From positions 28,894,001-28,958,000 of the forward strand of contig OZ249436.1 in assembly GCA_965235115.1 (NCBI GenBank): a stretch of DNA of 64,000 nucleotides, in the 5' to 3' direction. This stretch comes from Laetmonice hystrix. Lineage: Eukaryota. A program made the translations under genes and the position numbers. The number at the start of each line of letters is the position of its first letter. The stretch's first letter is position 1. The notes beneath the pieces are model-generated. The model was not told where the DNA came from. It worked only from the letters and a program-made list of their open reading frames with translations, and did not search any database. Below, one piece after another: positions 1,641-62,369 of this stretch.

Positions 1641-1654
1641 GGCAGGGTCATGCT

Positions 1655-1915
1655 TATTTACAAGAACAGAAAGAGTTTACGATCACTCTCCATCTACATG
1701 GGCCAAAGGCCTACAAGTACCTGCGAGAAAAACTGACGTGACATCTGAAGCACTCATGTTCATGGTAGTGGGAATGAAGGGCATCTGGAAGTCACCGACT
1801 GGATACTTATAACACGGACACTCAAGCCTGACACTCAAAAAGTTCTTGTGGAACATGCATTAAATATGCTTCATGAATGCAGTATCAGCCTTTTGTGCTT
1901 AACCATGGATAGTCA
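1655..1915 (+). pseudogene. P-element/THAP9-like transposase relic, repeated in every macrosatellite unit
   Basis: Translation across frame breaks gives QEQKEFTITLHLHGPKAYKYLRE / TDVTSEALMFMVVGMKGIWKSPTGY / TRTLKPDTQKVLVEHALNMLHECSISLLCLTMD. These match the P-transposase motifs (F)ALTLHxxxPKAYxYLR, EALVFMVVGxxGxWKxPIAY and the xTxD catalytic-Asp strand. An internal deletion, a frameshift and stops are present. Confidence 0.85.
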
Positions 1916-26971: not shown

Positions 26972-27694
26972 TTGCGTATGACAAAATCAAATCCAGAGCG
27001 TACATTGGCGGCAAAGGCAGGTTTCAATATATACTGTTGGTCCACCATCGTGAACATACCATGTCATTGTGTTATAGTCAGCGACTGCCGTGATCATGAA
27101 AAGTCGGCAGCGGTGGCGTACACCAGTCCTTTGAGATCCTATAGGCCTAGATGAAACAAAACCTCCGAATGTTGAGGTGATCCGACATCCCGGACAGATG
27201 GTCCATCAAGTCAAATTAAGGAGATATATATTTGCCTTGTTGTCGAAGCTAGAGAAATACCGATTATTCAAAATCACGTGAAGCTTTTTCGCAACGTCCC
27301 ACGGAAAAGGGCCAAACTATGGCCTTGGCGGGAATGTGACTCATCGTTTGATCATGTCCGGGGCGAAGATGATGAGTAATGCTGAAACATTTGCTGATGT
27401 GACAATGACATTCATGTCATTGTTATGAATGAGGACGTCATTGAACAGCAATGTCAAGATTTGGGCACCTTTGTCTTGTGGAATGGACTGCAGACATTCC
27501 CCCCGGGACAATTAGGCCCTACTATACACACTGTGTTCAAACAACTGGTGAGAAAAATTTACAGAATTATTATACAGAAGACATAAGACACAGAGACGTC
27601 CCTCTACGCTATGCCATGTTGAAGATGCTGTAGGCGGTCCTATAGACTTCGGTCAACGACCTGACCTTCCTGGATAGAATCCAGTTCCAGGGCA

Positions 27695-27976
27695 ATGCGT
27701 GAAGGAAGCGAGACTGCCGTTGCCTCTTGTAAACCTCCAGCCAAATGCTGTGATCGAGTATCAGCTAGGCCTGCATATCGAAACAAGACATTGCACGGCA
27801 AGCAAAAGAAGACAAAGCAGGACGACTCTGAATGTGCAAGCTGCTGCTTTGTCTCTCGTGACCCATCCGATCCTCAATCAACTGAGGACTGGCTTATGTG
27901 TAGGATATGGCACCTTTGGTTTCACGAGTCCTGTGGGGAAGATTATGGCATTATCGACGATGATTTTTCGACTTAG
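27695..27976 (+). pseudogene. Degenerate PHD-finger fragment, probably the C-terminus of a pogo/DDE_1-type transposase
   Basis: A basic patch followed by C-x2-C ... EDWLMCRIWHLWFHESC resembles the PHD motif WIxCxxCxxWxHxxC, with one Cys replaced by W. Confidence 0.55.
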
Positions 27977-28210
27977 CAAACCTTTTTCTGCTCTTTATAA
28001 ATGGAACACCCTCCCAGCTTTTAGGCCAAGTAACTCTGTCGTTTTTGAAATCACCTCATAGATTTTCACATATGACGGTGGTATGGAAGTAGACTATAGC
28101 CTATATTTGTTCGGCCAATTCGTTATCAGCCTTCACTTTCTGCCTGTTCCGGCTCATAATTTAGCCTACTTTTTATATCACTTACGTTGCCATTGCGTTA
28201 GTTGACCTTT

Positions 28211-29260
28211 TGTAAAGTTTAGTGCAGGAGCCACGAGCTTGTTTTCAGTGGTCACCAGTTAGTTGTGTGACAACTAACAAACATACTGCAATTATATTAC
28301 AGTGACACAAAATTTAGAATAACTTAAAGTTACCTTTACCTGGAACTCACCAAGGGCCAAAACAGGAGAGTTCCATCCCGGGCGTGCGTGTGCCCCCAAC
28401 AACAACACAGAGACTGATATGGTGGTGTAGTCAAGTCGAGTCTGTTTTACCTTTATTGCAAGCTGGTATATATACCAAGTTATTGTATAATCACAGTGGA
28501 CTGTAGAATCGCCCTTTGATTCTCACATGGTGTGCTGCATGGACATGGATAATTAGGCCCCGTTCATACAGCGACCATCAGAGCCATCTGGTGGTCTTTT
28601 GGGTTAAGAATATTATAACAAAGTACTGGCGTCGCAGCGCCCTCTATATGATAGTACATACGAGATTGGGTGAACGCAGCCCAAGGCTCACCATCGCCTT
28701 TGCCCGGTCCCCACAGGCCCACCATGACCTTTCCCCGGCGTCCTCAGTATGTATTAAGGGCTGTTCATATTGCAGCCATCAGAGCCACCTGGTGGCCTGA
28801 TACTATATCACTACATTAAAATATATAAGGATAATACAGGCATGGGTATCGTGCGACGATAGTCTGAACGCACCTGGCTACAAGGTTTTCCTGAACCTTG
28901 TACTGCTAATCAGTCATGTGCTGGTCAGTGAACTGGTCAGTGACCCTCTCACTCCTATGATAAGATATTAACATTAACCTCCTGCCAATACAAAACCATT
29001 TTATAGTATAAACCAGACTATAAGACATATTTATATAAGTGCATATTTCTCTGAATACATACCTACGAGTATAATATCTAATATATAGTTTCACATGAAG
29101 GCGGCCAATATAAACTTGTTGTTTGCCATACTACATCATAGTGTAGTTAAACAATGCATAATAAAACATACATAGATCCTAAATAAGTGCCTGATTAATA
29201 TATTATGTCAGGCTAGGAATATATTATAAAATTACAGGCTGTAGGGCTGTATATTTTACA
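28211..29260 (-). repeat. 3' LTR (1050 bp)
   Basis: Direct repeat of 37666-38715 (3 substitutions noticed by eye), TG...CA ends, preceded on the minus strand by a PPT. Confidence 0.98.
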
Positions 29261-29277
29261 TACCTTCCCCACCTTTT
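29261..29277 (-). promoter_or_regulatory. Polypurine tract (second copy at 31351-31367)
   Basis: Minus-strand AAAAGGTGGGGAAGGTA directly abuts the LTR. Confidence 0.9.
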
Positions 29278-29298
29278 AGTTTGATACCAATCTCAAAC

Positions 29299-29669
29299 TT
29301 AAGATAATGATTCTAAAGCCATGGAGGCTGTACGATATGGATATCTGAAATCCATGTCAGTCAACTTAATAGGCGTCTGCACCACATTAAGAGTGTTCGG
29401 TGCAGACGTCGGAATTACATTTGGTACATTAGCCGTATTAACTGGTAATGACTTCTTGGTTCTACACGTAAACCAATAAATGATAAAAATAATAAGTATA
29501 ATAATTAATCCCACTCCGATTCCACCAGTTGGAAGTACAATATGTGGTTTAGGAAGAACCCATCCAGGTGAGTCAGGTTCTCTTTCCTTCCAGTCTTTCA
29601 TGGACAGGAGTGGCACCTCCACTCGTTTGCGAAATGACAGTTTATCGCGCACTTCTGGTGTCACAAATG
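29299..29669 (-). pseudogene. env: env 3' remnant (TM anchor and cytoplasmic tail) in the deleted second unit
   Basis: Matches 31389-31759. Confidence 0.93.
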
Positions 29670-30700
29670 ACTTTCTCAGTCTCCAGTCGCTTCCGGCAGT
29701 CACGAGCAAAATGACCGAGCCCTTGACAGTGATAACATTTTTTGTGGCTTCGACCTTCCATCCCCCTAGTTGATGGGCGTGCTGGTTTGGAGTACCCCGT
29801 CTGCTGTGGTGCTGTCTGTTCATTGACCTCACGTTTCTCGAGGAGCTTGCGGATCGACTTCATTTCACCTTGCACTGTCTTCAATAGTTGGTTGTATTCC
29901 TCCATGGCTCTTTTTTCCACTGTTGGTGGCTTCTTAGTGGGGACCGTCCCTATGTCCATCGGCTCTTCCCCACGGTCTGCGATCTCTGCCAGGCCCACTG
30001 CCCGTGAAGCTGCATTGGCCGAATCTATGGCGCCATCTATGGTGGATGGTCGTTGAAAATGAACTTGCGTTCTTGAGGTCTTATCCCGTAGTCCTTGGAT
30101 GAATTGTTTAATTAGACGTTCCCTTACCAGTGGTAATGCCAACTCCTCCGTGTCATACGCCCTCGTCATTGCTTCCTTATATCGTCTACCATATTCACGG
30201 GTGTCCTCATATGGATTTTGCACTATCTTGTCTACCTTGGCGCGAAGATATTCTTTCTCATCTTCATCCAGGAATGCCTTTATTATGGCGGCCTTTATAT
30301 ATTCCCAGGAACGTTCATCAGGTAGGGATTCAACAATGTAATTTCTCACCATGGTTGCGAGGCTTCCAGTGACGAGGTAGCCCACCATTTCCAGGAGCAA
30401 GTTGTCGGTGGCGTTTACCCATGCACTCGCGTTGTCGATCCCACGGATCCATTCCCGGAGAGCTTCCCTGTTGGTACCATCCGTCACTACCATTCGCTTT
30501 GCATGTTGTTCCAATCTGTGTCGAACTTCCCTGGTGGCTTCCAGATTGAGGCGGTGTTGTTGTAAACGCTGAGACTCGGTTTCGACAGGGGGCTGCCCTT
30601 GCTGTTGTTGTTCCTGCATTTGCTGTTGTTGTAGTTGCTGTTGTTGTAGTTGCTGTTGTTGTAGTTGCTGTTGTTGTAGTTGCTGTTGTTGGTCGTCCAT
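29642..30700 (-). CDS. gag: Second gag copy (352 aa) with a new C-terminus created by the deletion junction
   Basis: Identical to the 36532-37605 protein through the zinc knuckle (CYHCQGLGHFARDCRKRLET), then EKVICDTRSAR*. The frameshift site is lost. Confidence 0.9.
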   Translation of the reverse strand: MDDQQQQLQQQQLQQQQLQQQQLQQQQMQEQQQQGQPPVETESQRLQQHRLNLEATREVRHRLEQHAKRMVVTDGTNREALREWIRGIDNASAWVNATDNLLLEMVGYLVTGSLATMVRNYIVESLPDERSWEYIKAAIIKAFLDEDEKEYLRAKVDKIVQNPYEDTREYGRRYKEAMTRAYDTEELALPLVRERLIKQFIQGLRDKTSRTQVHFQRPSTIDGAIDSANAASRAVGLAEIADRGEEPMDIGTVPTKKPPTVEKRAMEEYNQLLKTVQGEMKSIRKLLEKREVNEQTAPQQTGYSKPARPSTRGMEGRSHKKCYHCQGLGHFARDCRKRLETEKVICDTRSAR

Positions 30701-30741
30701 CTTTGTAGGTTGTGGGTGGTGTCCTCACGGAATTCACAACA

Positions 30742-30759
30742 GTCCCATCGTGGTCACCA
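30742..30759 (-). promoter_or_regulatory. Second (internal) primer-binding site
   Basis: Minus-strand TGGTGACCACGATGGGAC, 1 nt after the middle LTR; identical to 37647-37664. Confidence 0.88.
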
Positions 30760-30760
30760 A

Positions 30761-31350
30761 TGTAAAGTTTAGTGCAGGAGCCACGAGCTTGTTTTCAGTG
30801 GTCACCAGTTAGTTGTGTGACAACTAACAAACATATTGCAATTATATTACAGTGACACAAAATTTAGAATAACTTAAAGTTACCTTTACCTGGAACTCAC
30901 CAAGGGCCAAAACAGGAGAGTTCCATCCCGGGCGTGCGTGTGCCCCCAACAACAACACAGAGACTGATATGGTGGTGTAGCTGAACCTTGTACTGCTAAT
31001 CAGTCATGTGCTGGTCAGTGAACTGGTCAGTGACCCTCTCACTCCTATGATAAGATATTAACATTAACCTCCTGCCAATACAAAACCATTTTATAGTATA
31101 AACCAGACTATAAGACATATTTATATAAGTGCATATTTCTCTGAATACATACCTACGAGTATAATATCTAATATATAGTTTCACATGAAGGCGGCCAATA
31201 TAAACTTGTTGTTTGCCATACTACATCATAGTGTAGTTAAACAATGCATAATAAAACATACATAGATCCTAAATAAGTGCCTGATTAATATATTATGTCA
31301 GGCTAGGAATATATTATAAAATTACAGGCTGTAGGGCTGTATATTTTACA
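30761..31350 (-). repeat. Internal LTR (590 bp) with a 460-bp deletion
   Basis: Same ends as the other LTRs. The junction GGTGTAG|CTGAACC at 30980/30981 removes the equivalent of 28431-28890. Confidence 0.97.
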
Positions 31351-31388
31351 TACCTTCCCCACCTTTTAGTTTGATACCAATCTCAAAC

Positions 31389-33224
31389 TTAAGATAATGA
31401 TTCTAAAGCCATGGAGGCTGTACGATATGGATATCTGAAATCCATGTCAGTCAACTTAATAGGCGTCTGCACCACATTAAGAGTGTTCGGTGCAGACGTC
31501 GGAATTACATTTGGTACATTAGCCGTATTAACTGGTAATGACTTCTTGGTTCTACACGTAAACCAATAAATGATAAAAATAATAAGTATAATAATTAATC
31601 CCACTCCGATTCCACCAGTTGGAAGTACAATATGTGGTTTAGGAAGAACCCATCCAGGTGAGTCAGGTTCTCTTTCCTTCCAGTCTTTCATGGACAGGAG
31701 TGGCACCTCCACTCGTTTGCGAAATGACAGTTTATCGCGCACTTCTGGTGTCACAAATGTTGGCCAGGTGAGATTAAGACGAGGGACTGGACGAAGTACT
31801 GGTGGTCGTACATGCATCGTGCTTTGTCCCAGTTGAAAACCACGAGTTCTCCAATGTGGTCCCTCTAGAATACACCCGCCGGGCACCTTGGTCCGCTGAG
31901 GACCCATCATGTCCCAATAACGTGCCGGCTGGCCTATACACCTTAACACTACCTTAGTAGGAAAATATGTCACAATGACCACAGAGTTCGGGTTATCAGC
32001 GTCTCGGACTATGTCCACGGAGTGATTGGACCGTTTCGAGATTAATATAGTACAATTGGGTGATATCAACCCATTCACCAATGCCTCCTCACAAGAGGTC
32101 ATAAAATATTCCTTCTCCGGTTGACATACCAATGGAGCATGTCCTGCACAAGAATCCGGAGCAAACGACGTGGCAGAGGTCGTGCTGACCACAATATTAT
32201 TTCGACCTGAAAAACTTCGTACATGATCCTCATCATGCGGAACCTTGAAATATTTTAAAGAAAACCGTAAATACTTCCCATTCGTCACTCCTGGGATTAC
32301 CACACGGAAAGCAAACTCTCCATTACGGTTCCATAACAATTCCGTATGGATGAATTGATAGTACCAGTCAAGATTCAATGTTTGATGCCCACGCTGGTTA
32401 AGTTCATTAATAATCTCCATTAAGTACCGTGGAGGTAATACCTCTTTCGTCAACCAACCTTGTTGTAATTGAAAAACCTGTTCGTTAAAAATACGCTTTT
32501 GTGTATGAAAATCCCGAATCGCAAACTCCATCTGTTCAATGGTTTGGTCAATTTGTCTCTGTAAAGTCAATTTTCCCATATATAGCTGCAAAGCCTGAAC
32601 TTTTCGTGCATTCGTACTTGCTAGTGTATAAAGTTTACTTGTTTCAGTTTGCAATTCTCTTAAATCCTGTCTATTTTCTCGAATATATCTCCGCGTTTGA
32701 TTTACAATACTTAACATATGGGAAGCTTCATGGTGAAGGATAGTCATTTTCTGACGAGTTTTGTCCAGAGCTGATTTCAGAATGTTAATATCATCGACGG
32801 TAGCAGTGCCGAACAATGCCTTGCTCAACTTCCCGACAAAGTTAATCAAGCCACGTCTGACTCGAGTGGGGCGACCGGTCGGGGGGGTCACACCACCAAG
32901 CCGGACGCTTGTTCCGACATCGAGATCCCGCCTCTTATCTAACGAATTTAAACGGAAATACCAGTTGGATTTGTCGATAGAAGTCACTTGGGTTTCAGCT
33001 TTAGAAATGGCACGTTTTACATCTGCTGTCCATCCTGAAACGTTCGGACGGAACGGAGGGTGCACCACGATCACAGCTGTCCATAGGGCCGACACGATTC
33101 TTGCTTCTCCCTTCTCCTCTACTAGAACGCCATCTTCTGTAAACAAATCGGCCGTCACTGGTCTCCCCCTGAAGATGAGGTAGAGGACGGTACACCACAG
33201 AAGGCCGCAACCGTAGCGATGCAT
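31389..33224 (-). CDS. env: Envelope glycoprotein, baculovirus-F/errantivirus-type class I fusion protein (611 aa)
   Basis: N-terminal signal-like segment; furin site RVRR followed by fusion peptide GLINFVGKLSKALFGTATVDD; heptad-rich region; Cys-rich region; NxS/T sequons; C-terminal TM IGVGLIIILIIFIIYWF. Lies between pol and the PPT. Confidence 0.93.
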   Translation of the reverse strand: MHRYGCGLLWCTVLYLIFRGRPVTADLFTEDGVLVEEKGEARIVSALWTAVIVVHPPFRPNVSGWTADVKRAISKAETQVTSIDKSNWYFRLNSLDKRRDLDVGTSVRLGGVTPPTGRPTRVRRGLINFVGKLSKALFGTATVDDINILKSALDKTRQKMTILHHEASHMLSIVNQTRRYIRENRQDLRELQTETSKLYTLASTNARKVQALQLYMGKLTLQRQIDQTIEQMEFAIRDFHTQKRIFNEQVFQLQQGWLTKEVLPPRYLMEIINELNQRGHQTLNLDWYYQFIHTELLWNRNGEFAFRVVIPGVTNGKYLRFSLKYFKVPHDEDHVRSFSGRNNIVVSTTSATSFAPDSCAGHAPLVCQPEKEYFMTSCEEALVNGLISPNCTILISKRSNHSVDIVRDADNPNSVVIVTYFPTKVVLRCIGQPARYWDMMGPQRTKVPGGCILEGPHWRTRGFQLGQSTMHVRPPVLRPVPRLNLTWPTFVTPEVRDKLSFRKRVEVPLLSMKDWKEREPDSPGWVLPKPHIVLPTGGIGVGLIIILIIFIIYWFTCRTKKSLPVNTANVPNVIPTSAPNTLNVVQTPIKLTDMDFRYPYRTASMALESLS

Positions 33225-36200
33225 CTTCTTTTTGCTTCAAACTGTTCCTCCGAGCTGGGCCGTTTTCGTGGGCGTAACCTCATGTGGTACTGGGACTTCG
33301 CTGGTACTGGGTTGTGCTCCGAGAACCGGCGTCGTTTTGTAGCTCGCCTCGGATGGTGGATAATGCTATCATCCTCATTGCTGATAGGAACTGAAACATC
33401 AGGTTGTAGGTCATGACCTTGGCCATTGTCTGGTGGCTGGATAAGGACTTGTTTCCTTTGTGTCCGGGTCATACGAGGACGCAGGCCATCCCAGTTCACG
33501 TCAGGGTCGACTAGCCGTACTTTGCATCGGTTCACTGTTCTTCTTTTGTTTTGCGGTCCCACTGCAGTGATAACGGGCCCTTGGATCCTCGTGACGACAT
33601 ACCCAGGATCCCAACTAGGGTCGAGGGAGGCACCTTCATGCACTAGTAACATCACGTGGTCTCCTACTGTGAGGGATCCCGCATTGGCTTGTCTTTGGAG
33701 ACGGTCCCTATTGTACCTGCGGCTTTCTTCGGTACAACGTGCTGCTTCTTTAAATGCCTTACTTAGTTCATCGATTCGAGCGGCAAGGATGTCTGTCTTA
33801 TTGCCCTCGGTTCGCTCGAGGAGCCTCTTGTAGGGCACTGGCGGTGGTCGGCCATACTGTAGGTAGTAAGGTGAGTATCCAGTTACTACGGAAGTACTCA
33901 CCCTGTGTGCCCACAAGGCTGGCCCCAAGCATTCTTCCCACTCGTGACTTCGGGCGTTGACCAGTTTGCGCAACAACTCCTTCAGGGTCCTGTGGAAACG
34001 TTCGATTTTCCCATTAGTTTGTGGGTGATATGGAGTTGTGTGTCTGACCTCTACTCCCAGGCGTTTGAGGTAGCCCACTACTAGATTGTTACGGAACTCT
34101 AAACCACGGTCAGTGATCATCACTTCGGGTGACCCATAGCGAGGGATGTACTCTGATTCTAAGTACTTTAAAACATTTGCCGCGCTCTTCTGAGGGAGTG
34201 GTTTCACTTCAACCCATCCAGTGGCATGGTCGATCACTGTTAACATGTACTTGTTTCCATTTGGTGATGTTGGGAATGGTCCACAGATGTCCATTCCGAC
34301 AACCTGACAGGGGTACTGCGCTATCGGCATGTCCATCGGTGGTGGTGTTTCCGTTGTAGTTTTATTAACCTGGCATTTGGCGCAATGAGATAAGACGTGG
34401 TAGGTATCCCTCCTCTGCTTGGGCCACTTGTATGCTTCTTGGATCCGATATAGCGTCTTCTGCATTCCCTGATGGCCTACTTCTGCATGAGCCCTTCTCA
34501 CCACACGGAAACGTGCACTAGGAGGTAAGACGAGCCGAGGATATTCTGCTTGGCCGGGTGGTGCTTTCAGGGTGTAGAGCAATCCATCATGGATGACATA
34601 ATCGTTGTCACCTTCCTTCCCCTGGAGGTATTCCTCCATGGTTTCTTGCTCCTTACGAACTTCTTCCTTCTCCAGCTCATCGAATTCCCATGGTATGTCT
34701 TCTCCTACGATGGCACCCAGGTTGTGAGCTTGCTCCAGGTTGTCAGTGTGACCTTTATGTGGTTTTATCCTTGATAACATATCGGCACGGATGTTGTTTG
34801 GCCCCTTTCGATATTGAATTGGAGCCCCATATTCTGCAAGTAAGACAGCCCATCGTTGGATCTTGGTGTTGTTGATCTCTGAGAGAAATAACGACTTCAA
34901 TGGCTTATGGTCTGTGAAGATAGTGAACTCTGAAGAATAAAGATAGGGGCGGAGTTTCTTCAAGGCATAGATCACTGCATAGGCCTCCTTTTCGATTGTT
35001 GCCCAACGAAGTTGAGCCCCGGATAGTTGCTTCGAGATATACTGTATTGGACGTTCAACACCATCATCGTCTTCCTGTACTAAAATGGCCCCTATTGCAT
35101 AATCACAGGCATCAGTATAGAGTTTATATGGCTTATTCAACTGTGGATAAGCCATCACACTGTCGGAGGTCAACAGTTCACGCAGGTGCACCCACGCCTC
35201 CTCCTGTTCCTTAGCCCACTTAAATTGCACATTCTTCTTTGTGAGTTGAACGAGGGGGTGAGACACTTTGGCATAGTTAGGAATGCACTGACGATAGTAT
35301 CCAGTCATTCCCAAAAAGGACCGAACACCTTTTACAGTTTGTGGTGCTGCCATCTGTCGGATTGCATTTGTCTTGTCCGGATCTGCACTAATACCGTTGG
35401 GCGTTATGATATATCCCAGCAATCGGAGCTCCTGGGCCCCAATGGTACATTTAGATGGTTTCACTTTCAGACCATATGACTTCAATGCTTCGAGTACTAG
35501 TTTAAGATGCTCCTCATGCTCTTCCTCTGTGCGGCTGAATATAACTACGTCATCAATAAAAACTAACACAAACTGGCCAAGGTAGGGTGCAAGCACCTTG
35601 TTCATTAGCCGTTGAAATACTGATGGTGCATTGGTTAGTCCAAACGGCATGCGTTTAAACTGAAACAACCCTCGATGGCACGCGAAGGCTGTTTTCTCTA
35701 CACTGTTGTCGTCCATCTTGATCTGCCAGTACCCACTTTTAAGATCTAGCGTGCTGAAGATCTTACTACCTGATAAGGTATCAAAAATGTCTTGGATTAA
35801 CGGAAGTGGGTGAGCATCTTTTTTGGTAATCGAGTTTAACTGGCGATAATCCACACAAAAACGCATGGTACCATCCTTTTTAGGCACTAATAGTAGAGGC
35901 GAAGCCCAAGGAGAGCTGCTAGGTTCGATGATGTCTTCACTTAGCATTTTCTCGATCTCTTCGTCTACCACCTTTCGTTTCGCTAATGGGAGCCGATAAA
36001 GTCGCTGCCTAATGGGGGAGTTCTCACCTGTGTCTATGGACATCTCGACTGCATCAGTGCACCCCAAGGCCATTCCTTCGGTGGCGAAGACACTGGGGTA
36101 GGCTTGAATCCACCGATCCATTTCGGAGTACACTGCTGCCACCTGTCTGTCTCCATCTCCTGCGATTCTGTATCTATGTGTGTTTCCTTGGAAGAACACT

Positions 36201-36484
36201 TTCCGTTTCTTGTAGCTAATCTCCGCGTCTAAGGCTTCCAGGATATCAGTGCCGAATAATGCATCGTGTTGTAATTTGTCATTGACATAAAATTCTACGT
36301 TTTTACCATATACAGGTACGACAGTTTTCCCTCTCGTAAGGATGGGCGCACCACCTAGACCTCGGAGCTTCACTCCAGGGGTCGTCAGTGGTTCCCGATG
36401 ACTATTTCGACAAATAGCAATCCACTTATTTGTCCTGATTAAAGATTTGCTGGCACCGGTATCTATCAAAATGTTCATCCTCAC
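33155..36484 (-). CDS. pol: Pol polyprotein (protease, RT, RNase H, integrase); the frame stays open upstream to the frameshift site at ~36535
   Basis: LIDTGAS (PR); SPWASP..VPKKDG..CVDYR.LN, LDLKSGYWQ, MPFGL.NAP and FIDD (RT); TDACDYAIGA, EKE and TDHKPL (RH); H-x4-H...C-x2-C, MDICGP, TDRG.EF and ERFHRTL (IN). Gypsy domain order, no stops. Confidence 0.98.
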   Translation of the reverse strand: MRMNILIDTGASKSLIRTNKWIAICRNSHREPLTTPGVKLRGLGGAPILTRGKTVVPVYGKNVEFYVNDKLQHDALFGTDILEALDAEISYKKRKVFFQGNTHRYRIAGDGDRQVAAVYSEMDRWIQAYPSVFATEGMALGCTDAVEMSIDTGENSPIRQRLYRLPLAKRKVVDEEIEKMLSEDIIEPSSSPWASPLLLVPKKDGTMRFCVDYRQLNSITKKDAHPLPLIQDIFDTLSGSKIFSTLDLKSGYWQIKMDDNSVEKTAFACHRGLFQFKRMPFGLTNAPSVFQRLMNKVLAPYLGQFVLVFIDDVVIFSRTEEEHEEHLKLVLEALKSYGLKVKPSKCTIGAQELRLLGYIITPNGISADPDKTNAIRQMAAPQTVKGVRSFLGMTGYYRQCIPNYAKVSHPLVQLTKKNVQFKWAKEQEEAWVHLRELLTSDSVMAYPQLNKPYKLYTDACDYAIGAILVQEDDDGVERPIQYISKQLSGAQLRWATIEKEAYAVIYALKKLRPYLYSSEFTIFTDHKPLKSLFLSEINNTKIQRWAVLLAEYGAPIQYRKGPNNIRADMLSRIKPHKGHTDNLEQAHNLGAIVGEDIPWEFDELEKEEVRKEQETMEEYLQGKEGDNDYVIHDGLLYTLKAPPGQAEYPRLVLPPSARFRVVRRAHAEVGHQGMQKTLYRIQEAYKWPKQRRDTYHVLSHCAKCQVNKTTTETPPPMDMPIAQYPCQVVGMDICGPFPTSPNGNKYMLTVIDHATGWVEVKPLPQKSAANVLKYLESEYIPRYGSPEVMITDRGLEFRNNLVVGYLKRLGVEVRHTTPYHPQTNGKIERFHRTLKELLRKLVNARSHEWEECLGPALWAHRVSTSVVTGYSPYYLQYGRPPPVPYKRLLERTEGNKTDILAARIDELSKAFKEAARCTEESRRYNRDRLQRQANAGSLTVGDHVMLLVHEGASLDPSWDPGYVVTRIQGPVITAVGPQNKRRTVNRCKVRLVDPDVNWDGLRPRMTRTQRKQVLIQPPDNGQGHDLQPDVSVPISNEDDSIIHHPRRATKRRRFSEHNPVPAKSQYHMRLRPRKRPSSEEQFEAKRRCIATVAAFCGVPSSTSSSGGDQ

Positions 36485-36541
36485 TCCTGCTAATTCAATA
36501 AAGATACATATGCGGTGATCCGGTGCCCGTCTTAGTTTAAA
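36452..36541 (-). promoter_or_regulatory. -1 programmed ribosomal frameshift signal (U UUA AAC plus downstream stem)
   Basis: gag ends GAT TTA AAC TAA. The -1 frame reads KLRRAPDHRICIFIELAGVRMNILIDTG into pol. GGCACCGG starts 7 nt after the heptamer and can pair with CCGGTGCC (plus-strand positions 36520-36527 and 36452-36459). Confidence 0.85.
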
Positions 36542-37605
36542 TCTAAACGCTTCATTTGTGACTCCACAGCAGCCTGCACGGCAGTCTCCAGTCGCTTCCG
36601 GCAGTCACGAGCAAAATGACCGAGCCCTTGACAGTGATAACATTTTTTGTGGCTTCGACCTTCCATCCCCCTAGTTGATGGGCGTGCTGGTTTGGAGTAC
36701 CCCGTCTGCTGTGGTGCTGTCTGTTCATTGACCTCACGTTTCTCGAGGAGCTTGCGGATCGACTTCATTTCACCTTGCACTGTCTTCAATAGTTGGTTGT
36801 ATTCCTCCATGGCTCTTTTTTCCACTGTTGGTGGCTTCTTAGTGGGGACCGTCCCTATGTCCATCGGCTCTTCCCCACGGTCTGCGATCTCTGCCAGGCC
36901 CACTGCCCGTGAAGCTGCATTGGCCGAATCTATGGCGCCATCTATGGTGGATGGTCGTTGAAAATGAACTTGCGTTCTTGAGGTCTTATCCCGTAGTCCT
37001 TGGATGAATTGTTTAATTAGACGTTCCCTTACCAGTGGTAATGCCAACTCCTCCGTGTCATACGCCCTCGTCATTGCTTCCTTATATCGTCTACCATATT
37101 CACGGGTGTCCTCATATGGATTTTGCACTATCTTGTCTACCTTGGCGCGAAGATATTCTTTCTCATCTTCATCCAGGAATGCCTTTATTATGGCGGCCTT
37201 TATATATTCCCAGGAACGTTCATCAGGTAGGGATTCAACAATGTAATTTCTCACCATGGTTGCGAGGCTTCCAGTGACGAGGTAGCCCACCATTTCCAGG
37301 AGCAAGTTGTCGGTGGCGTTTACCCATGCACTCGCGTTGTCGATCCCACGGATCCATTCCCGGAGAGCTTCCCTGTTGGTACCATCCGTCACTACCATTC
37401 GCTTTGCATGTTGTTCCAATCTGTGTCGAACTTCCCTGGTGGCTTCCAGATTGAGGCGGTGTTGTTGTAAACGCTGAGACTCGGTTTCGACAGGGGGCTG
37501 CCCTTGCTGTTGTTGTTCCTGCATTTGCTGTTGTTGTAGTTGCTGTTGTTGTAGTTGCTGTTGTTGTAGTTGCTGTTGTTGTAGTTGCTGTTGTTGGTCG
37601 TCCAT
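36532..37605 (-). CDS. gag: Gag (357 aa) with N-terminal (QQQQL)n tract and one CCHC zinc knuckle
   Basis: First long ORF after the PBS; Q..YE...EY..R major-homology-like segment; EEPMDIG; CX2CX4HX4C. Confidence 0.95.
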   Translation of the reverse strand: MDDQQQQLQQQQLQQQQLQQQQLQQQQMQEQQQQGQPPVETESQRLQQHRLNLEATREVRHRLEQHAKRMVVTDGTNREALREWIRGIDNASAWVNATDNLLLEMVGYLVTGSLATMVRNYIVESLPDERSWEYIKAAIIKAFLDEDEKEYLRAKVDKIVQNPYEDTREYGRRYKEAMTRAYDTEELALPLVRERLIKQFIQGLRDKTSRTQVHFQRPSTIDGAIDSANAASRAVGLAEIADRGEEPMDIGTVPTKKPPTVEKRAMEEYNQLLKTVQGEMKSIRKLLEKREVNEQTAPQQTGYSKPARPSTRGMEGRSHKKCYHCQGLGHFARDCRKRLETAVQAAVESQMKRLDLN

Positions 37606-37646
37606 CTTTGTAGGTTGTGGGTGGTGTCCTCACGGAATTCACAACA

Positions 37647-37664
37647 GTCCCATCGTGGTCACCA
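37647..37664 (-). promoter_or_regulatory. Primer-binding site (most like a tRNA-Arg 3' end; tRNA-Trp is an alternative)
   Basis: TGGTGACCACGATGGGAC, 1 nt downstream of the 5' LTR; TGG pairs with the tRNA CCA. The tRNA identity is from memory. Confidence 0.85.
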
Positions 37665-37665
37665 A

Positions 37666-38715
37666 TGTAAAGTTTAGTGCAGGAGCCACGAGCTTGTTTT
37701 CAGTGGTCACCAGTTAGTTGTGTGACAACTAACAAACATATTGCAATTATATTACAGTGACACAAAATTTAGAATAACTTAAAGTTACCTTTACCTGGAA
37801 CTCACCAAGGGCCAAAACAGGAGAGTTCCATCCCGGGCGTGCGTGTGCCCCCAACAACAACACAGAGACTGATATGGTGGTGTAGTCAAGTCGAGTCTGT
37901 TTTACCTTTATTGCAAGCTGGTATATATACCAAGTTATTGTATAATCACAGTGGACTGTAGAATCGCCCTTTGATTCTCACATGGTGTGCTGCATGGACA
38001 TGGATAATTAGGCCCCGTTCATACAGCGACCATCAGAGCCATCTGGTGGTCTTTTGGGTTAAGAATATTATAACAAAGTACTGGCGTCGCAGCGCCCTCT
38101 ATATGATAGTACATACGAGATTGGGTGAACGCAGCCCAAGGCTCACCATCGCCTTTGCCCGGTCCCCACAGGCCCACCATGACCTTTACCCGGCGTCCTC
38201 AGTATGTATTAAGGGCTATTCATATTGCAGCCATCAGAGCCACCTGGTGGCCTGATACTATATCACTACATTAAAATATATAAGGATAATACAGGCATGG
38301 GTATCGTGCGACGATAGTCTGAACGCACCTGGCTACAAGGTTTTCCTGAACCTTGTACTGCTAATCAGTCATGTGCTGGTCAGTGAACTGGTCAGTGACC
38401 CTCTCACTCCTATGATAAGATATTAACATTAACCTCCTGCCAATACAAAACCATTTTATAGTATAAACCAGACTATAAGACATATTTATATAAGTGCATA
38501 TTTCTCTGAATACATACCTACGAGTATAATATCTAATATATAGTTTCACATGAAGGCGGCCAATATAAACTTGTTGTTTGCCATACTACATCATAGTGTA
38601 GTTAAACAATGCATAATAAAACATACATAGATCCTAAATAAGTGCCTGATTAATATATTATGTCAGGCTAGGAATATATTATAAAATTACAGGCTGTAGG
38701 GCTGTATATTTTACA
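37666..38715 (-). repeat. 5' LTR (1050 bp)
   Basis: Direct repeat of 28211-29260, followed on the minus strand by the PBS and gag. Confidence 0.98.
37907..37929 (-). promoter_or_regulatory. Candidate LTR TATA box and poly(A) signal (3' LTR copy at 28452-28474)
   Basis: Minus-strand TATATATA followed 9 nt later by AATAAA. Confidence 0.6.
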
Positions 38716-38878
38716 CTTTGTTCCACATGTTAAATAGGCCTACAGCTTGTTTCCTGCGATTAGGCCTCGTTACAGTGATATGAATTTTAAAAATAAATTC
38801 TATAGAATCATAAATCTATATACCTAGAAGCCTATACACACCATGGGCCCGTGTGATATGCTCACGGCACTGGCGTTA

Positions 38879-40886: not shown

Positions 40887-43640
40887 TAGTCTAGGCAAAA
40901 CAGGGTTGGTCTGGGAAAAATGTGGTACATAATTTTTTTCAGTGGATTTTAACCCTCTGAGGGGTCCTTATTAAGAATCCGATGGGTGTGGTCGCCACAC
41001 CCTTGGGCATTTTGAGAAATCCAAGATGGCCGCCAAAATGGCTGCCATTTCACTAAAATGGCTATAACTTCCTTTCTATTTGTCACAGAAGGTTCATTTT
41101 TTCACCTATCCCTATGTTTTTGGGGTCAGGCAATCCATTAAAGGTGTTTTTAATTCCAGTAAACAATGACGTCACCGGAAAATCCAAGATGGCCGCCAAG
41201 ATGGCTGCCATTTCACTAAAATGGCTGTAACTTCCTTTCTATTTGTCACAGAAGGTTCATTTTTTCACCTATCCCTATGTTTTTGGGGTCAGGCATTCCA
41301 TTAAAGGTGTTTGTAATTCCATTAAACAATGACGTCACCGGAAAATCCAAGATGGCCGCCAAGATGGCTGCCATTTCACTAAAATGGCTGTAACTTCCTT
41401 TCTATTTGTCACAGAAGGTTCATTTTTTCACCTATCCCTATGTTTTTGGGGTCAGGCAATCCATTAAAGGTGTTTTTGCTTCCATCAAATGATGACATTA
41501 ACCGAAAATCCAACATGGCCGCCAAGATGGCTGCCGTTTCACTGGATATTGGCAGCAGCTAATGGTTGAACCTTGGCTGATGGTGGGGTAAGGGGCAGGG
41601 GCTGGTGGTCGGACCTTGGCAGCTACTGGTGGTCGGACCTTGGCAGCTACTGGTGGTCGGACCTTGGCAGCTGCTGGTGGTCGGACCTTGGCAGCAGCTG
41701 GTGGTCGGACCTTGGCAGCTACTGGTGGTCGGACCTTGGCAGCAGCTGGTGGTCGGACCTTGGCAGCTACTGGTGGTCGGACCTTGGCAGCAGCTGGTGG
41801 TCGGACCTGGGCTGGTGTTGGGGTAAGGGCAGCGGCTGGTGGTCGGACCTGGGCTGGTGGTAGGGTAAGGGCAGCGGCTGGTGGTCGGACCTTGGCTGGT
41901 GGTAGGGTAAGGGCAGCGGCTGGTGGTCAGACCTTGGCTGGTGGTGGGGTATGGGCAGCAGCTGGTGGTTGGACCTTGGCTGGTGGTAGGGGAAGATGTG
42001 GTTTAACCTTGGCGGGTGGTGCAGTATGAAATGGTGTTGGTGTTCAGACCTTTGCAGGGACTGGTGGTCAGACCTTGGCTGGTGATCACTGGTGCTATAT
42101 AGGCAGAGGTTTGTGGTCGGGCCTTGGCTGGTGGTGCGGTATGGGCAGCCCGAGTTGGTGGTCGGACCTTGGCAGTGGCTGGTGGTCGGACCTTGGCAGT
42201 GGCTGGTGGTCGGACCTTGGCAGTGGCTGGTGGCCGGACCTTGGCAAGGGCTGGTGGTCGGACCTTGTCAAGGGCTGGTGGTCGGACCTTGGCAGTGGCT
42301 GGTGGTCGGACCTTGGCAAGGACTGGTGGTCGGACCTTGGCAGTGGCTGGTGGTCGGACCTTGTCAAGGGCTGGTGGTCGGACCTTGGCAGTGGCTGGTG
42401 GTCAGACCTTGGCAGTGGCTGGTGGTCGGACCTTGTCAAGGGCTGGTGGTCGGACCTTGGCAGTGGCTGGTGGTCGGACCTTGGCAAGGGCTGGTGGTCG
42501 GACCTTGGCAAGGGCTGGTGGTCGGACCTTGGCTGATGGTGGGGTAAAGTCAGGGACTGGTGGTCGCACCTTGGTAGTGACTGGTGGTGGGGTATGGGCA
42601 GGGACTGGCAGGGGTCAAACCTTGGCAGAGACTGGTTACCAGATAGTCGGACCATGGCAGGTGGTGGTCGGACCTTGCCATCCAATTGCAGTAGAAGTTG
42701 TCCCAATGATTGGCAATGTATTCAGCAACCCGAAAATTCTCTGGATAGACACCAAATATATATCTCTAGGATAGCCTGACCCCAAAAACATAGAGATAGG
42801 TGCAAAAATGAACCTTTTGTGACGAATAGAAAAAAATTACAGCCATTTCAGTGAAAGGACAGCCATCTTGGCAGCCATGTTGGATAATCGGGTAACGTCA
42901 TCATTTAATGGAATTAAAAACACCTTTCACACTAACCTTCTGTGATGAATAGGAAAGAAGTTACAGCCATTTCAGTGAAACGGCAGCCATCTTGGCGGCC
43001 ATGTTGGATTTTCGGTTAATGTCATCATTTGATGGAAGCAAAAACACCTTTAATGGATTGCCTGACCCCAAAAACATAGGGATAGGTGAAAAAATGAACC
43101 TTCTGTGACAAATAGAAAGGAAGTTACAGCCATTTTAGTGAAATGGCAGCCATCTTGGCGGCCATCTTGGATTTTCCGGTGACGTCATTGTTTAATGGAA
43201 TTAAAAACACCTTTAATGGATTGCCTGACCCCAAAAACATAGGGATAGGTGAAAAAATGAACCTTCTGTGACAAATAGAAAGGAAGTTACAGCCATTTTA
43301 GTGAAATGGCAGCCATCTTGGCGGCCATATTGGATTTTCCGGTGACGTCATTGTTTAATGGAATTAAAAACACCTTTAATGGATTGCCTGCCCCAAAAAA
43401 CATAGGGATGGGTGAAAAAATGAACCTTCTGTGACAAATAGAAAGGAAGTTATAGCCATTTTAGTGAAATGGCAGCCATCTTGGTGGCCATCTTGGATTT
43501 CTCAAAATGCCCAAGGGTGTGGCGACCACACCCATCGGATTCTTAATAAGGACCCCTCAGAGGGTTAAAATCCACTGAAAAAAATTATGTACCACATTTT
43601 TCCCAGACAACCCTAATTTTGGCATTTTTTGCCCGGACTA
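40887..43640. mobile_element. Foldback-type non-autonomous DNA element (Academ-like TAG...CTA ends, TTA TSD) nested in the HINE
   Basis: TTA|TAGTCTAGGCAAAA ... TTTTGCCCGGACTA|TTA. Inverted arms of >650 bp are built from ~162-bp units (AAATCCAAGATGGCCGCC...). The host core repeat resumes after it. Confidence 0.82.
41560..42680. repeat. 24-bp minisatellite (GGCTGGTGGTCGGACCTTGGCAGT variants)
   Basis: Directly visible period-24 repeats, with some longer variant units. Confidence 0.95.
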
Positions 43641-50630: not shown

Positions 50631-52814
50631 CTCTGAATATGGTATCACCACAATGTATCTAGTGTTTCTTGTTCCCATGCCTTTATTGTCCAGGAGGCAG
50701 GCCATACGTTTCGTCTATCATTTACTCCCATCTAATCTGTGTCCCCTACAGACCATCTGTTTACAAGCGTCCGATAACGTTGTCATGTAGTCCCAATGGC
50801 TGTTTGTCGTAAAAGTTGTACGCCTTTCCTATATCTGAAAGTCTGAAAGTTGCTCGAATCAGAAACGTTTCCTAATAATCCCAGAGAGTCAGCGAAGTCT
50901 CGTCCGTAGTACCGTACAAGATGTAAGAGCGTGCCCTAGTGCAGGCTTCCTAATGCTAAGAAACTACGTTCCGCGGAACGGGAGAACTCCACGTCTGCTC
51001 GTATCCCAAGCCAAACCACATACAACCCAACTGTAAGGTTGCGCGTCTATATATCTCTGGTAGGTTTCGGGGGATTTTCTGTGCACGTTACTAAACCTGC
51101 ACTTCCTTAACCTATGGATCGTTTGCGCTGGTAAGGTGGATGAGTTATTGCTTTGCTGCTGTACCTGTTGAACCTAAACCTGCTGTCGGTGTGGATACGC
51201 TAACATAGGGAATTGTCCGACTAGCTGAATCTGATGTCTAAAACCGTATTCGTAAATATTTACTAGTAGTGTGCTTCAACACACCAGAATTCCTTGTGAC
51301 CAAACCCGCAGAGACGCTGTAAGTATCTGAAGAAATCAATAAACATGTAAGAGAAGTACGTATGGCGTGTGTCCTTTTTGTGTGTATGATTTTCAAAGTG
51401 TCCACTTCCTGTCGGCGAATCTCATCAGGCGGCGCCCTAGTGTCTGAAGCCAAGCTGTCGATTGGGCGGGAACGCGGTAAGTGTTTGGAATGATCTGCAT
51501 AACATGTTTAAAAAGGCGCAAAAAATTGAGTATCAATTAAATATAAAGGCTTTTGTTGGTTTTATTTAAAAATTAAACATTGACCGTAAGTTGTGCACAT
51601 GTTAATCTAGTATACATACATCTATATGGCACAGACAAGAGTGTTAAATTTTTAGTTTAAGTTAATAACGCCAATCAGTGATAGAATATACAGTGGTCCA
51701 CAACACAAGATTTTTCCTCAGAAAGACAGCGTCGTGATGACCGGATCGGATCCGCCATGTGTTGGGGGCTGTCAGACCACATCGGAATTTTAAACTAAAG
51801 GAAACATAAGTGTAAGGATGTGTCGTGATGTAACATAATGTTACGGATCCGGCTTTCTTCAGCGGGCTCCAGTGCAATAGTTTCCACCTATCTCAAAAGA
51901 TGGCGCTGACAAAAATACAGCGCCATCTTTTGACATACATGGAAACTATTGCATTGGAGCCCGCTGAAGAAAGCCGGATGTGACATCATCAATGACGTCA
52001 GGTGAGATACTACCTTTAAATTCAAGGTACGTTTTAATTAAAGCAAATCTCAGTCGACTGAAATAAATTCAACTGGCTATATCTTAAAAGATATTGATAA
52101 TTTTTCCCCGAAAACCAAATGTGATACCCATTGATACAAAAGGAAAAGATATGACCACAAAGTGTGGAGCAGGATTCAGTTTAAAAAATTGATTTTCAAA
52201 AATGACCTGAATTTTCGACTTCTCAGCTCCTTTCGAGCACAAGGCCTTTCGTTCCACTGTTTCACGATATAGGTGGCGCTGCATTTTGACTGTAATGGGC
52301 CGCGAATCTTAAACCCTTCCCAGAAACTGGAGGTGGCGCTGTATTCGCCTCAGCTCTCTGTGGTAGGCCTATAATGGCTGCCAATGCTCACCTTACCGCG
52401 CCTCTGAATACATGTATCATCATGATTTCCGTCTTCTTTTCCCTAAATTCAAGCTTGCCACTGCTGCACTTTTCTTTATTTTGGGTACACGAAATATAAC
52501 AAACTACATATTAAGACAAAATAGAATAAAAGGAAATAATAGGTGAAATTCTAGGGTCATCTGTTACACATATAGAGAGCTAAAATATCGAAACGAGTAG
52601 ACTCTATAGGAGATACGGCCGCAACAGTCCACCGACGGACTTACAAAATAACGTTAAATTACAATATGTAGGCTAACTTAAGTGTAACGATGTGTCGTAG
52701 AGTCATTGTCCCGGCGAGTAACCAGCTTTGGTGATAGTACATTTGGCAGAATTTAATTAACGAGAGACGACGAAGGCTAATACAGCGCCACCTCCAGTTT
52801 CCGGGAAGGTGTGT

Positions 52815-53065
52815 AAAGGCCTGGACCCACTAGCGCGTTTTACCGCTGCGGTCCACGCTGAGCGACAAAACGCGCTAGTGGGTTCAGGCCTTTAGCTGTT
52901 ATTGTTGTATTCATCGTGATAAAATTCGGACTCCCACGTAATTCGGAAATGTCCACATATCTCCTGAAGGCGGTGGTGCTTGCCGTAAGGCCTGAACCCA
53001 ATAGCGCGTTTTGTCGCTCAGCGTGGACCGCAGCGGTAAAACGCGCTAGTGGGCACAGGCCTTTA
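52815..53065. mobile_element. Small element made of two ~76-bp self-palindromic GGCCT-ended units in inverted orientation
   Basis: AGGCCTGGACCCACTAGCGCGTTTT...AAAACGCGCTAGTGGGTTCAGGCCT at ~52817-52890 and its reverse complement at ~52989-53062. Confidence 0.75.
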
Positions 53066-53404
53066 GGCGGCCCATTATCGGCAAAATGCAGCGCCACCTA
53101 TCGTGAAACAGTGGGACGAAAGGTCTTGTGCTCGAAAGGAGCTGAGAAGGCGAAAATTCAGGTCATTTTTGAAAATCAATTTTTTAAACTGAATCCTGCT
53201 CCACACTTTGTGGTCATATCTTTTCCTTTTGTATCAATGGGTATCACATTTGGTTTTCGGGAAAAAATGATCAATATCTTTTAAGATATAACCAGTTGAA
53301 TTTATTTCAGTCGACTGAGATTTGCTTGAATTTAAAGGTAGTATCTCACCTGACGTCATTGATGATGTCACATCCGGCTTTCTTCAGCGGGCTCCAATGC
53401 AATA

Positions 53405-57519: not shown

Positions 57520-59090
57520 TATGCATCCGGGCCCAGTAAGCAGGCCATACGTCTCGTCGATCATTTACACCCATCTGAACTCTGTCCGCTACAGACCGCC
57601 TGTAAGGGTCCGACAACGTTGTCAAGTAGTCTCATTGGCAATTTGCCGTAAATGTTTAATTAACAATGGTAAATGAAATCGTTGTACGCCTTTTCCATAT
57701 CAGATATCCCATCTCCAAGTAGAAAAAGATTACAGAAATGTTGCAGGCAAGCGCAAACACCATGCTGTACTGAAGCGGCGCCTCCGACTGCACTGCCACC
57801 TTCCGGCTACCGATGAAATCACCACGTATACCTGGCCGGGCTGTCGGGCACCTGTGCCGCTCAGGGGAGAGATAGGATTCTGCAATGATCAGCGAAAAAT
57901 TGCTTCATTTTTGATACGTCAAATTTAAATTACGCCCCCAAAGTGATCATTTTTGGCCAGATGTATAACTGTTAAACATTTCCGTCACGTACGTTCGCTA
58001 CAGATAAATGGTTGTGAAATTTACACTTCCCATTTGAGTATGTTCTCCATATTTTAACAGTAGATGCTCCTCGCCTATACCTGTGAAAATAAAGACGCTG
58101 TGGTCTTTGAACTAGGTCCCTTTTTCATTGGACATAGCAATTCCTATGGTAGGCCTATACCATTGAGCGCGTCTTCAGCAAATCAGATTCCAGCCCAAGT
58201 TAGTCAGCTTTTGAGGTATCAACTTCATCTTTTAGTATGTTGTACCAGGCCTAGAGGCGAATACTTTCTCTGAATATGGAGCCGTTCTGGACTGACAATT
58301 TACTCTTAATTGATAACGTGTTCAAATTCAACGAGAAATACTTGTACATGTATAGGCCTAACAGGGATATAATCTTGGTATAATTGCCGCTAAAATATCA
58401 TTTCACCTTTGGCTTGCTTCAATATAATTAGGCCTATATTTAATTATCTATATTATCTCCCATTCATTCCTTGTATCATGATTAGTCGATTTCTTAAGTG
58501 ACAGCAGCAGAGCTAAACGATTACAATAGTTTGCGTATACATTCAGGTAGGCTATAGACAGTCAGATGATGGTGGGCGGTCGGCAGGGTAGGCAGGGGCA
58601 GCAGGTCAGGAGGCTCAGCATAATAAATATTCATTTTCGATGTACTAATTTGCCGGATATGACGTCCTGTAAACCGGTGGTGAAGTAGTTTTTGACCGAG
58701 GAAGTGAGGCCGCATGGACTTTATGGCCACAGGCTGACTTGTGCCCCCGGGGGCCCGGCCAGGTACGTGGTGATTCCATCGGAAGCCGGAAGGTGGCAGT
58801 GCAGTCGAAGGCGCCGCCTCAGTATACAGCACGGCGGCGTTTGCCTGTAACATCTCTATAGGCCTAACCATTATACTTGAGGATGGGATATCTGATGTAG
58901 AAAAGGCGTACGACCATTTCAATTGCCATTGTTAATTAAACCTTTACGGCAAATTGCCACTGGGACTACTTGACAACGTGGTCGGACTCTTACAGACGGT
59001 TTGTAGGGAAACAGATTAGATGGGAGTAAATGATCGACCAAACGTATCGCCTGCCTCCTGGACAGTAAAGGCATGGAAACATGAAATGAG
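57520..59090. repeat. Inverted pair of a dispersed repeat (~57520-57845 and ~58750-59090); a third copy is at ~50670-50835
   Basis: Shared GCAGGCCATACGT..CGTC.ATCATTTAC.CCCATCT and CGACTGCACTGCCACCTTCCGGCT blocks in opposite orientation. Confidence 0.75.
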
Positions 59091-61115: not shown

Positions 61116-61250
61116 CTTTGCATTGAACTCAAGCTACCGCGTTACTTGCGATGGCGTTTGTACGTCACAAGAAATGATCTTGGCCTACTTGAATACGTGC
61201 ATGTCCTAAACTCCCCCATTCTTGCTAGCTGAGCGTCAGAGGGCACTTAA

Positions 61251-62196
61251 AGGGAGTCGTAAAATTCATTTTTTTCGATTTATGGCAGTCTTAGAAACAT
61301 ATGATTCGCATACCTTGGACTCCCAGTAACATCATGTGAGACTGTTATGGCCCAGCGACCAGTATTTAGTAAGGAAAATATGCCAAATCTCTCGCAAATA
61401 CGTAGCTCAGAATTAGCGAGCGGCCCACAGGATATTTGAGTTGGCCGCGGTGATGACGCGGTGATGACGCGTGATCACGTGACTTCCGGGTGTGGAAGGG
61501 AATCTCCCTCTAGTCTAGTGCATTCTCACACTCGAGTCCTTTCGGCAATCTTCGGCAATCTCCGTTCGTGCGGGGAAAGCACTCTCACAGATTACATATC
61601 ACTCACGGCCCGATTAGGAGCATCCGCGCCACCTCACTCGTCACACTCGTCAATTACTACACCGTGGATACAAAGTAGTATACGTGCCGGTCGGCAAGAT
61701 CGCTGATGTTGTTGAACAGGTCTTGAATTAAAATTACGCTGGTTGACTATCTTGAGCTTAACCGCCGCCGGTTTGACTGGTGTCATGCGGGAAGCCATGT
61801 CTTCCATGTACTGCGGTGAAACTAGTTCGCCCCGGTGTCCTCGTTACCCCCTGCGGTTTGCCCAGAGTCCCATGCAGGATCTATGAGCGTTCATTTCAGC
61901 AAATGGGCGCGAATGTGAGCGTGAGTCTAGTGTTGACCTAAATACCGCATGTACACCCGGAAGTCACGTGATCACGCGTCATCATCGCCCGACCGCGGCC
62001 AACTCAAATATCCTGTGGGCCGCTCGCTAATTCTGAGCTACGTATTTGCGAGAGATTTGGCATATTTTCCTTACTAAATACTGGTCGCTGGGCCATAACA
62101 GTCTCACATGATGTTACTGCATGGGAGTCCAAGGTATGCGAATCATATGTTTCTAAGACTGCCATAAATCGAAAAAAATGAATTTTACGACTCCCT
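61251..62196. mobile_element. Kolobok-like non-autonomous element, ~240-bp TIRs, TTAA TSD
   Basis: TTAA|AGGGAGTCGTAAAATTCATTTTT ... AAAAATGAATTTTACGACTCCCT|TTAA; the arms match inward to GACTTCCGGGTGT / ACACCCGGAAGTC. Confidence 0.9.
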
Positions 62197-62369
62197 TTAA
62201 CGAAATAAACGCAATATCTACCGAGGCCTAATTAAAAATTTCTAATTGGGCCTAAGTGCTGACAAGTTAAGTAGATTGTGCCCTTTCCTTTTCTGTCCTT
62301 TCCTTTTCTTTCCCTTTCTTTCTTTTTCTTTTCTTTCCTTTTCTTTCCCGTAATAATTGCCATAGCGAT

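Follow-up and report, generated by a model that had tools for sequence, protein, structure and literature searches.

Retrotransposons flanked by long terminal repeats (LTRs) are known to form tandems in which neighboring units share an LTR. In rice, 45 of 63 complex elements were reported to carry a target site duplication (TSD) (bioRxiv 10.1101/452573), and a pangenome survey reported 266 tandems along with TLI1/TLI2 (PMC11899658); in Drosophila, tandems are described in most LTR families and are often deleted across the tandem junction (PMC5932611). The Angela, Squiq, and Opie complexes likewise show three LTRs within a single TSD, and an error of reverse transcription (RT) is a candidate origin (PMC1950507). 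Ty5 tandems are cited in a report on the fission yeast elements Tf1 and Tf2 (PMC11042837), and env-bearing Ty3/gypsy elements are described as widespread in animals (PMC13524379). Here, we analyzed a stretch of 64,000 nucleotides from Laetmonice hystrix (contig OZ249436.1, positions 28,894,001 to 28,958,000, GenBank assembly GCA_965235115.1; hereafter the window) that contains a composite of three LTRs, two gag copies, one pol, and one env. Its LTRs and same-family interiors alternate head to tail, with near-identical units, an LTR at both ends, and one TSD, as in the rice and Drosophila tandems; unlike those, its middle LTR (LTR*) lacks 460 bp, its second interior holds only gag and an env tail, and the element is animal hosted and env carrying. 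The composite is likely a variant of the known tandem retrotransposon and not a new helper-plus-passenger unit, and a literature search of open papers found no report of a tandem combining a middle LTR deleted on the promoter side with a gag-only second unit.

Self-alignment of the window placed the retroelement at 38715 to 28211 of the minus strand (10,505 bp), with the order LTR-gag-pol-env-LTR*-gag-env tail-LTR inside one CTTT TSD. A preliminary description of the locus, made from its letters alone, had proposed this same layout of three LTRs in one TSD, and both the order and the coordinates were confirmed by self-alignment and open frames. The parts, including every primer-binding site (PBS) as well as every polypurine tract (PPT), are as follows.

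28207..28210, plus strand: left copy of the TSD CTTT, from self-alignment and from an empty target with one CTTT in public contigs
28211..29260, minus strand: 3' LTR (LTR-C), 1,050 bp, TG...CA ends; signals are TATATATA at 28474-28467, AATAAA at 28457-28452, and CTCF-like motifs at 28583-28594 and 28784-28795
29261..29669, minus strand: env tail, 409 bp, with a PPT adjoining the LTR, identical to 31351-31759
29670..29676, no strand: junction 2, a 7-nt filler that stands between gag and the env tail in place of 4,822 bp
29642..30700, minus strand: second gag, 352 amino acids from its ATG
30742..30760, minus strand: second PBS, same letters as the first
30761..31350, minus strand: middle LTR (LTR*), 590 bp, composed of LTR positions 1-370 and 831-1050
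31351..31367, minus strand: PPT of the full-length unit
31389..33224, minus strand: env, open frame of 611 amino acids from its ATG
33155..36604, minus strand: pol, open frame of 1,149 codons with protease, reverse transcriptase, RNase H, and integrase
36532..37605, minus strand: gag, 357 amino acids from its ATG, with Retrotrans_gag and zf-CCHC
37647..37665, minus strand: first PBS
37666..38715, minus strand: 5' LTR (LTR-A), 1,050 bp, with TATATATA at 37929-37922 and AATAAA at 37912-37907
38716..38719, plus strand: right copy of the TSD CTTT

Four repeat blocks make up the self-alignment: the outer LTR pair; a 1,304-bp block of the U5 part, PBS, and gag (36582-37885 matching 29677-30980 with no mismatch); a 779-bp block of the env tail, PPT, and first 370 LTR bp (30981-31759 matching 28891-29669, again with no mismatch); and the LTR pieces that compose the 590-bp LTR*. 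The composite thus equals a plain element of 8,415 bp plus 2,090 bp, and the extra unit (590 + 1,084 + 7 + 409 bp) is exactly one LTR plus interior with its own PBS and PPT. The claim of the preliminary description that both sites remain beside LTR* held, and each pair is identical in letters; the PBS may resemble the 3' end of a tRNA-Arg. A nested or double insertion was rejected, since an inner TSD is absent and the middle LTR is shared. The composite structure is real in the assembly, and its anatomy is confirmed.

Public data comprised the contigs of three runs from one sample of one study, compared over 26980-30595, a range that does not extend to LTR*, pol, the body of env, or the flank on the right; results refer to the pieces listed, 230 pieces and 26 loose ends lying beyond them. 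An empty target with a single CTTT was present in the contigs of all three runs, and as the target lies in a high-copy repeat, this empty site may be another copy of that repeat. The depth of contigs matching the target (26980-28210, and 38716 onward) was about 500 to 5,000, compared to about 130 for the element interior.

The letters of the LTRs bear on the order of events. The outer LTRs differ at 3 sites in 1,050 bp, and the duplicates differ at none of 2,083 bp (1,304 + 779; Fisher p 0.04, star-tree p 0.05). Of those sites, one falls in the part retained by LTR*, which along its whole length differs from the 3' LTR once and from the 5' LTR nowhere; at this single informative site it has the 5' LTR letter, and the 3' LTR carries the other letter. 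In all three public runs, the LTR contigs have the 3' LTR letter at this site and at 28763 and the 5' LTR letter at 28733, and each shows other letters only at 28733 and 28793. A single RT round yields identical outer LTRs (PMC1950507); with outer LTRs born identical, this pattern of letters is therefore suggestive of post-insertion copying of the U5-gag piece, either from the element's own 5' LTR or from the RNA of this copy. We consider it probable that the composite formed at this locus after insertion, whether by an RT circle or by a chromosomal route, and it is most likely a young one-off.

The public contigs showed the ordinary two-LTR structure. The sample holds 0.75 to 0.81 of the words; at 2 sites in gag its letter is found in neither copy, and at 1 LTR site its letter is found in neither outer LTR. 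Junction 1 was not seen in any of the three runs, in which the LTR contig crosses both positions at flat depth with no joint listed. Junction 2 was not seen in two of the three, where two contigs, which continue into the env body and pol, account for the full bin depth, and depth was not separable in the third. No gag-only form was seen in the public contigs either. Contigs drop rare forms, and the absence of the junctions is weak evidence to that extent; it shows only that the junction forms make up no major share of this sample's family members. Contig depth over the LTR was about twice that of the interior, a ratio that is not a copy number and counted for little here, and in one run a second, different sequence adjoins the LTR end, consistent with another insertion site. 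Separately, run X1 carries other letters and different loose ends at 29469-29667 and near 30067, which suggests a diverged sister subfamily in the sample.

We then consider what LTR* has lost. The missing 460 bp (44% of the LTR) hold its only AATAAA (position 804), its TATATATA (position 787), and both of its CTCF-like motifs, just as the preliminary description had listed. Its wording that exactly the promoter/terminator block was removed went too far: about 416 of the 460 deleted bp lie upstream of the TATA, and 227 of 561 possible internal deletions of this length (40%) remove both TATATATA and AATAAA, with 21% removing both CTCF-like sites too. The pattern used for the latter, which we assume to represent the CTCF motif, has four matches in the window against 0.11 expected, all within the two full LTRs; the flanks examined in four relatives (L001, L003, L004, and L006) gave no match. 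Within the full LTRs (28583-28795 and 38038-38250), the two motifs stand 201 bp apart in a repeated block of about 40 bp. In relative L003 (47% pol identity), TATATAT precedes AATAAA by 22 nt and the LTR end is the same, and because the same pair recurs there, it is reasonable that LTR* lost its best candidate promoter and poly(A) signal. L003 is the only one of four relatives with flanks examined to show the adjacent pair; LTR limits were unsettled in L001, L004, and L006, where it was sought and not found. The further claim that LTR* can neither start nor end transcription survives in part: the best candidate signals are gone, but four TATA-like words in the AT-rich part of U3, one TCAGT, and a GT-rich stretch are kept. 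LTR* may keep an initiator-plus-downstream promoter: TCAGT is retained, but positions +28 to +32 are unlike the downstream consensus.

More specific than the loss of signals is the place of the U5-side break at LTR position 831. The predicted start is position 818, 31 nt after the TATA, and the predicted cleavage is near 835, ahead of a stretch of 90% G+T; a conserved pattern of AATAAA followed by a GT-rich stretch is described for animal Metaviridae LTRs (PMC3601003). The break is thus predicted to fall inside a short R region of about 18 nt, R being defined here from motifs. At junction 1 (30980/30981), LTR position 370 is joined bluntly to 831 without microhomology. At junction 2, gag ends at 29677 and the env tail starts at 29669, with the filler at 29670-29676 in between, so both junctions are non-homologous. 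Exact filler templates of 7 to 8 nt occur at chance level; the filler is possibly a slipped copy of 31537-31546 primed by 4-nt microhomology, and 10 of 1,000 random fillers match as well as this template in a post hoc test. A 186-codon frame spanning junction 2 was dropped as a candidate, as it is not in the pol frame.

The 2,090-bp unit is what is expected of a one-LTR circle from a doubly deleted mini-element. As our tentative first choice, we propose that an intact gag-pol-env Ty3/gypsy element gained this unit in place by recombination with such a circle of complementary DNA (cDNA). The course would begin with an ordinary element of 8,415 bp inserting with a TSD of 4 bp and its LTRs later accumulating the three differences. 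In RT of this copy's RNA, the first strand transfer would then have misfired, passing from within R to U3 and giving junction 1, and an internal jump with filler in the same cDNA would have given junction 2. The resulting circle could have entered by a single crossover in the 779-bp env-tail/U3 homology, with a one-off, unstable tandem that does not spread as a unit as the predicted outcome. Each step has a described parallel. For human immunodeficiency virus (HIV), junctions in R are reported to mark aberrant first-strand transfer and were found in 50 of 395 deleted proviruses (PMC12657518); in those HIV-1 proviruses, as here, the junction lies in R and promoter-side U3 is removed, but the lesion sits in the terminal LTRs of a single provirus and not in a middle LTR. 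For an LTR element of the fly, RT is reported to yield mainly one-LTR circles (bioRxiv 2022.09.25.509424). In fission yeast, cDNA recombining into resident Tf1 and Tf2 copies gives tandems with one shared LTR, the route favored for the present composite; those events are described as integrase independent, were obtained experimentally, and involve largely full-length cDNA (PMC11042837), whereas the route here is reconstructed and the unit doubly deleted.

Several points weigh against this proposal. It requires two RT errors in a single cDNA and the return of that cDNA to its own parent copy among family members of unstated number, its R region is motif predicted and not mapped, and the filler also fits chromosomal repair by polymerase theta as described in PMC2895639. 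The age argument rests on three changes, one informative site, and a majority contig, and a comparison of interiors only is not significant (p 0.07). Furthermore, the public sample may not carry this insertion, its contigs represent the majority path of one sample and not a proven ancestral state, and the junction evidence comes from contigs only, with no spanning read.

The first unit retains uninterrupted open frames for gag, pol, and env. The Pfam domains of pol, in the order protease, reverse transcriptase, RNase H, and integrase, together with the TG...CA LTR ends, PBS, PPT, and short TSD, place the element in Ty3/gypsy (Metaviridae). Its env is of the F type: Pfam Baculo_F scored 25.2 bits against a cutoff of 24.1 and was also found in 6 of 8 env homologues, and the translation shows an RxxR site and a C-terminal hydrophobic segment. 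By gene content, the element therefore agrees with the broad-sense errantiviruses as characterized in PMC13524379, in which LTRs and a PBS accompany intact gag and pol genes and an env of the F or gB type, and the family may already be catalogued in the supplement of that paper. The closest database matches share 55 to 63% identity in pol and 41 to 45% in env. The pol frame is -1 relative to gag, and a TTTAAAC heptamer precedes the gag stop, which points to gag-pol expression by -1 frameshifting at this heptamer. The second gag retains the capsid and zinc-knuckle domains, and its last 16 amino acids are replaced by 11 others; it is cut 41 nt upstream of the heptamer, which is absent, and would therefore be unable to make Gag-Pol if the frameshift is as proposed. 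A related gag-pol-env element (42% pol identity) formed a head-to-tail pair in 1 of 13 contigs found. This 17,687-bp metagenome contig (L004/L005) has a period of 9,224 bp and units 99.3 to 99.5% identical; it is possibly an assembly error, and its LTR limits and TSD are unsettled.

Formation in place could also have been purely chromosomal, which we regard as unlikely but worth serious weight. In one version, template switching with two jumps, while the DNA was being replicated or a break repaired, copied the U5-gag and env-tail/U3 pieces; in the other, an unequal sister exchange involving the LTRs produced a full tandem, from which 460 bp and 4,822 bp were later deleted. Such a route accounts for the shared 5' LTR letter without homing; a filler slipped from 31537-31546 would match what is reported for alternative end joining (PMC2895639), and the usual explanation of tandems, given in the Drosophila and rice reports (PMC5932611, PMC11899658), is an exchange between LTRs. 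It leaves unexplained why junction 1, which lacks microhomology, falls in the approximately 18 nt of predicted R within a 1,050-bp LTR, and the exchange version needs three events, yet there is no mutation in 2,083 bp. A single round of RT, with template switching between two copackaged RNAs and one integration, is improbable in our view, even though the two-nonhomologous-jump model of Sabot and Schulman is published (PMC1950507) and would explain the single TSD, the position of junction 1 in predicted R, and the identical interior duplicates. It predicts outer LTRs identical at birth that age equally, and the outer pair here is the most different, with 3 differences, whereas the Angela, Squiq, and Opie complexes have outer LTRs that are most alike, two complete cores, and complete LTRs, compared to a core lacking 4,822 bp and an internal LTR lacking 460 bp here. 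Because LTR* agrees in its letter with the 5' LTR, whereas the 3' LTR and the public contigs have another, this explanation would further need a back-mutation or gene conversion.

An assembly artifact, in which a chimeric read or a misresolved repeat supplied the extra 2,090 bp, would fit the 100% identity of the duplicates, which extends to a 15-bp microsatellite present in 4.8 copies, and would fit the missing junctions (junction 1 in no contig of three runs, junction 2 in none of the two readable runs). Overlap errors, however, do not as a rule produce two non-homologous junctions, one of them with 7 new bases, and the loss of rare forms from contigs or the absence of the insertion from the public sample would have the same effect; we judge an artifact decidedly improbable. 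The same order of parts would result if a gag-only defective copy had been in place first and had then been joined, by recombination through gag, by a full-length interior bearing the shortened LTR, with U5-gag converted. Only one lesion per molecule is then needed, and insertion upstream of a resident copy has a precedent in the fission yeast report (PMC11042837), but two copies must match over 2,083 bp, including letters absent from the public contigs (two in gag, one in the LTR), which also lack the gag-only form, so that this course seems very improbable. Least probable of all, and scarcely to be expected, is the unit envisaged in the preliminary description, a helper and a gag-only passenger fused on one 9.5-kb RNA and transposing together. 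The single TSD, an LTR* without the only AATAAA and TATATATA, and the intact PBS and PPT pairs agree with it, and tandem transposition has been proposed to arise through a weak terminator (PMC11899658). Against it, the LTR letters indicate formation in place, the readable contigs run through both junction positions and leave the junction forms at most a minority in the sample, the second gag has neither a frameshift site nor a clear promoter, and repeats of this length are reported to be mostly deleted in each retroviral RT cycle (PMC3187697). The idea of one transposing entity accordingly finds no support here.

If the motifs are right, read-through to the 3' LTR is plausible and would give an RNA computed at 9,473 nt versus 7,383 nt for the plain element. 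It may be cut short at another AATAAA, located at 30284 within the second gag, or at a cryptic signal. The predicted RNA would contain two sets of direct repeats, roughly 1.3 kb and 0.78 kb long, with copies several kilobases apart, and in vectors of murine leukemia virus (MLV), a 701-bp direct repeat more than 1.5 kb apart was reported to be deleted in >90% of RT cycles (PMC3187697). Because long direct repeats are so heavily deleted by retroviral RT, daughters would mostly be simple two-LTR forms and a stable fused entity is unlikely; given these repeats, the earlier suggestion that one RNA could yield several cDNA species is probably right.

Other repeats surround the element. About 12 copies of a 2.2-kb tandem unit (87 to 100% identity), plus two shorter units, occupy 1-25535, and this array holds no open reading frame of at least 180 amino acids. 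At 40896-43621, 649-bp inverted arms (98%) with 163-bp subrepeats enclose about 40 copies of a 24-bp minisatellite, in what looks like a foldback-type element. Nested inverted repeats (88 to 100%, arms of 60 to 240 bp) at 51847-53404, 57589-59006, and 61247-62200 are probably non-autonomous DNA transposons.

LTR* invites comparison with self-inactivating retroviral vectors, from which promoter-side U3 is removed. That the locus acts as a natural self-inactivating vector and as the seed of a non-autonomous family is a long shot. In that case, the 9.5-kb read-through RNA would, when primed at the inner PBS, give gag-pol-env copies between a pair of LTRs without promoters, and gag-only copies with full LTRs would come from repeat deletion or from second-strand transfer at the inner PBS, so that one provirus would found a defective family and damp its own spread. 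As a one-off rearrangement, the composite carries little weight, since shared-LTR tandems are common and have been described as frequent and polymorphic. Its value is modest, that of a datable snapshot in which the order of events can be read from the LTR letters and the R region of the family is predicted by junction 1. If daughters with junction 1 in both LTRs, or copies with junction 2 only, were to occur at new sites, the locus would mark the origin of a non-autonomous or self-inactivating lineage from a single env-bearing animal provirus.

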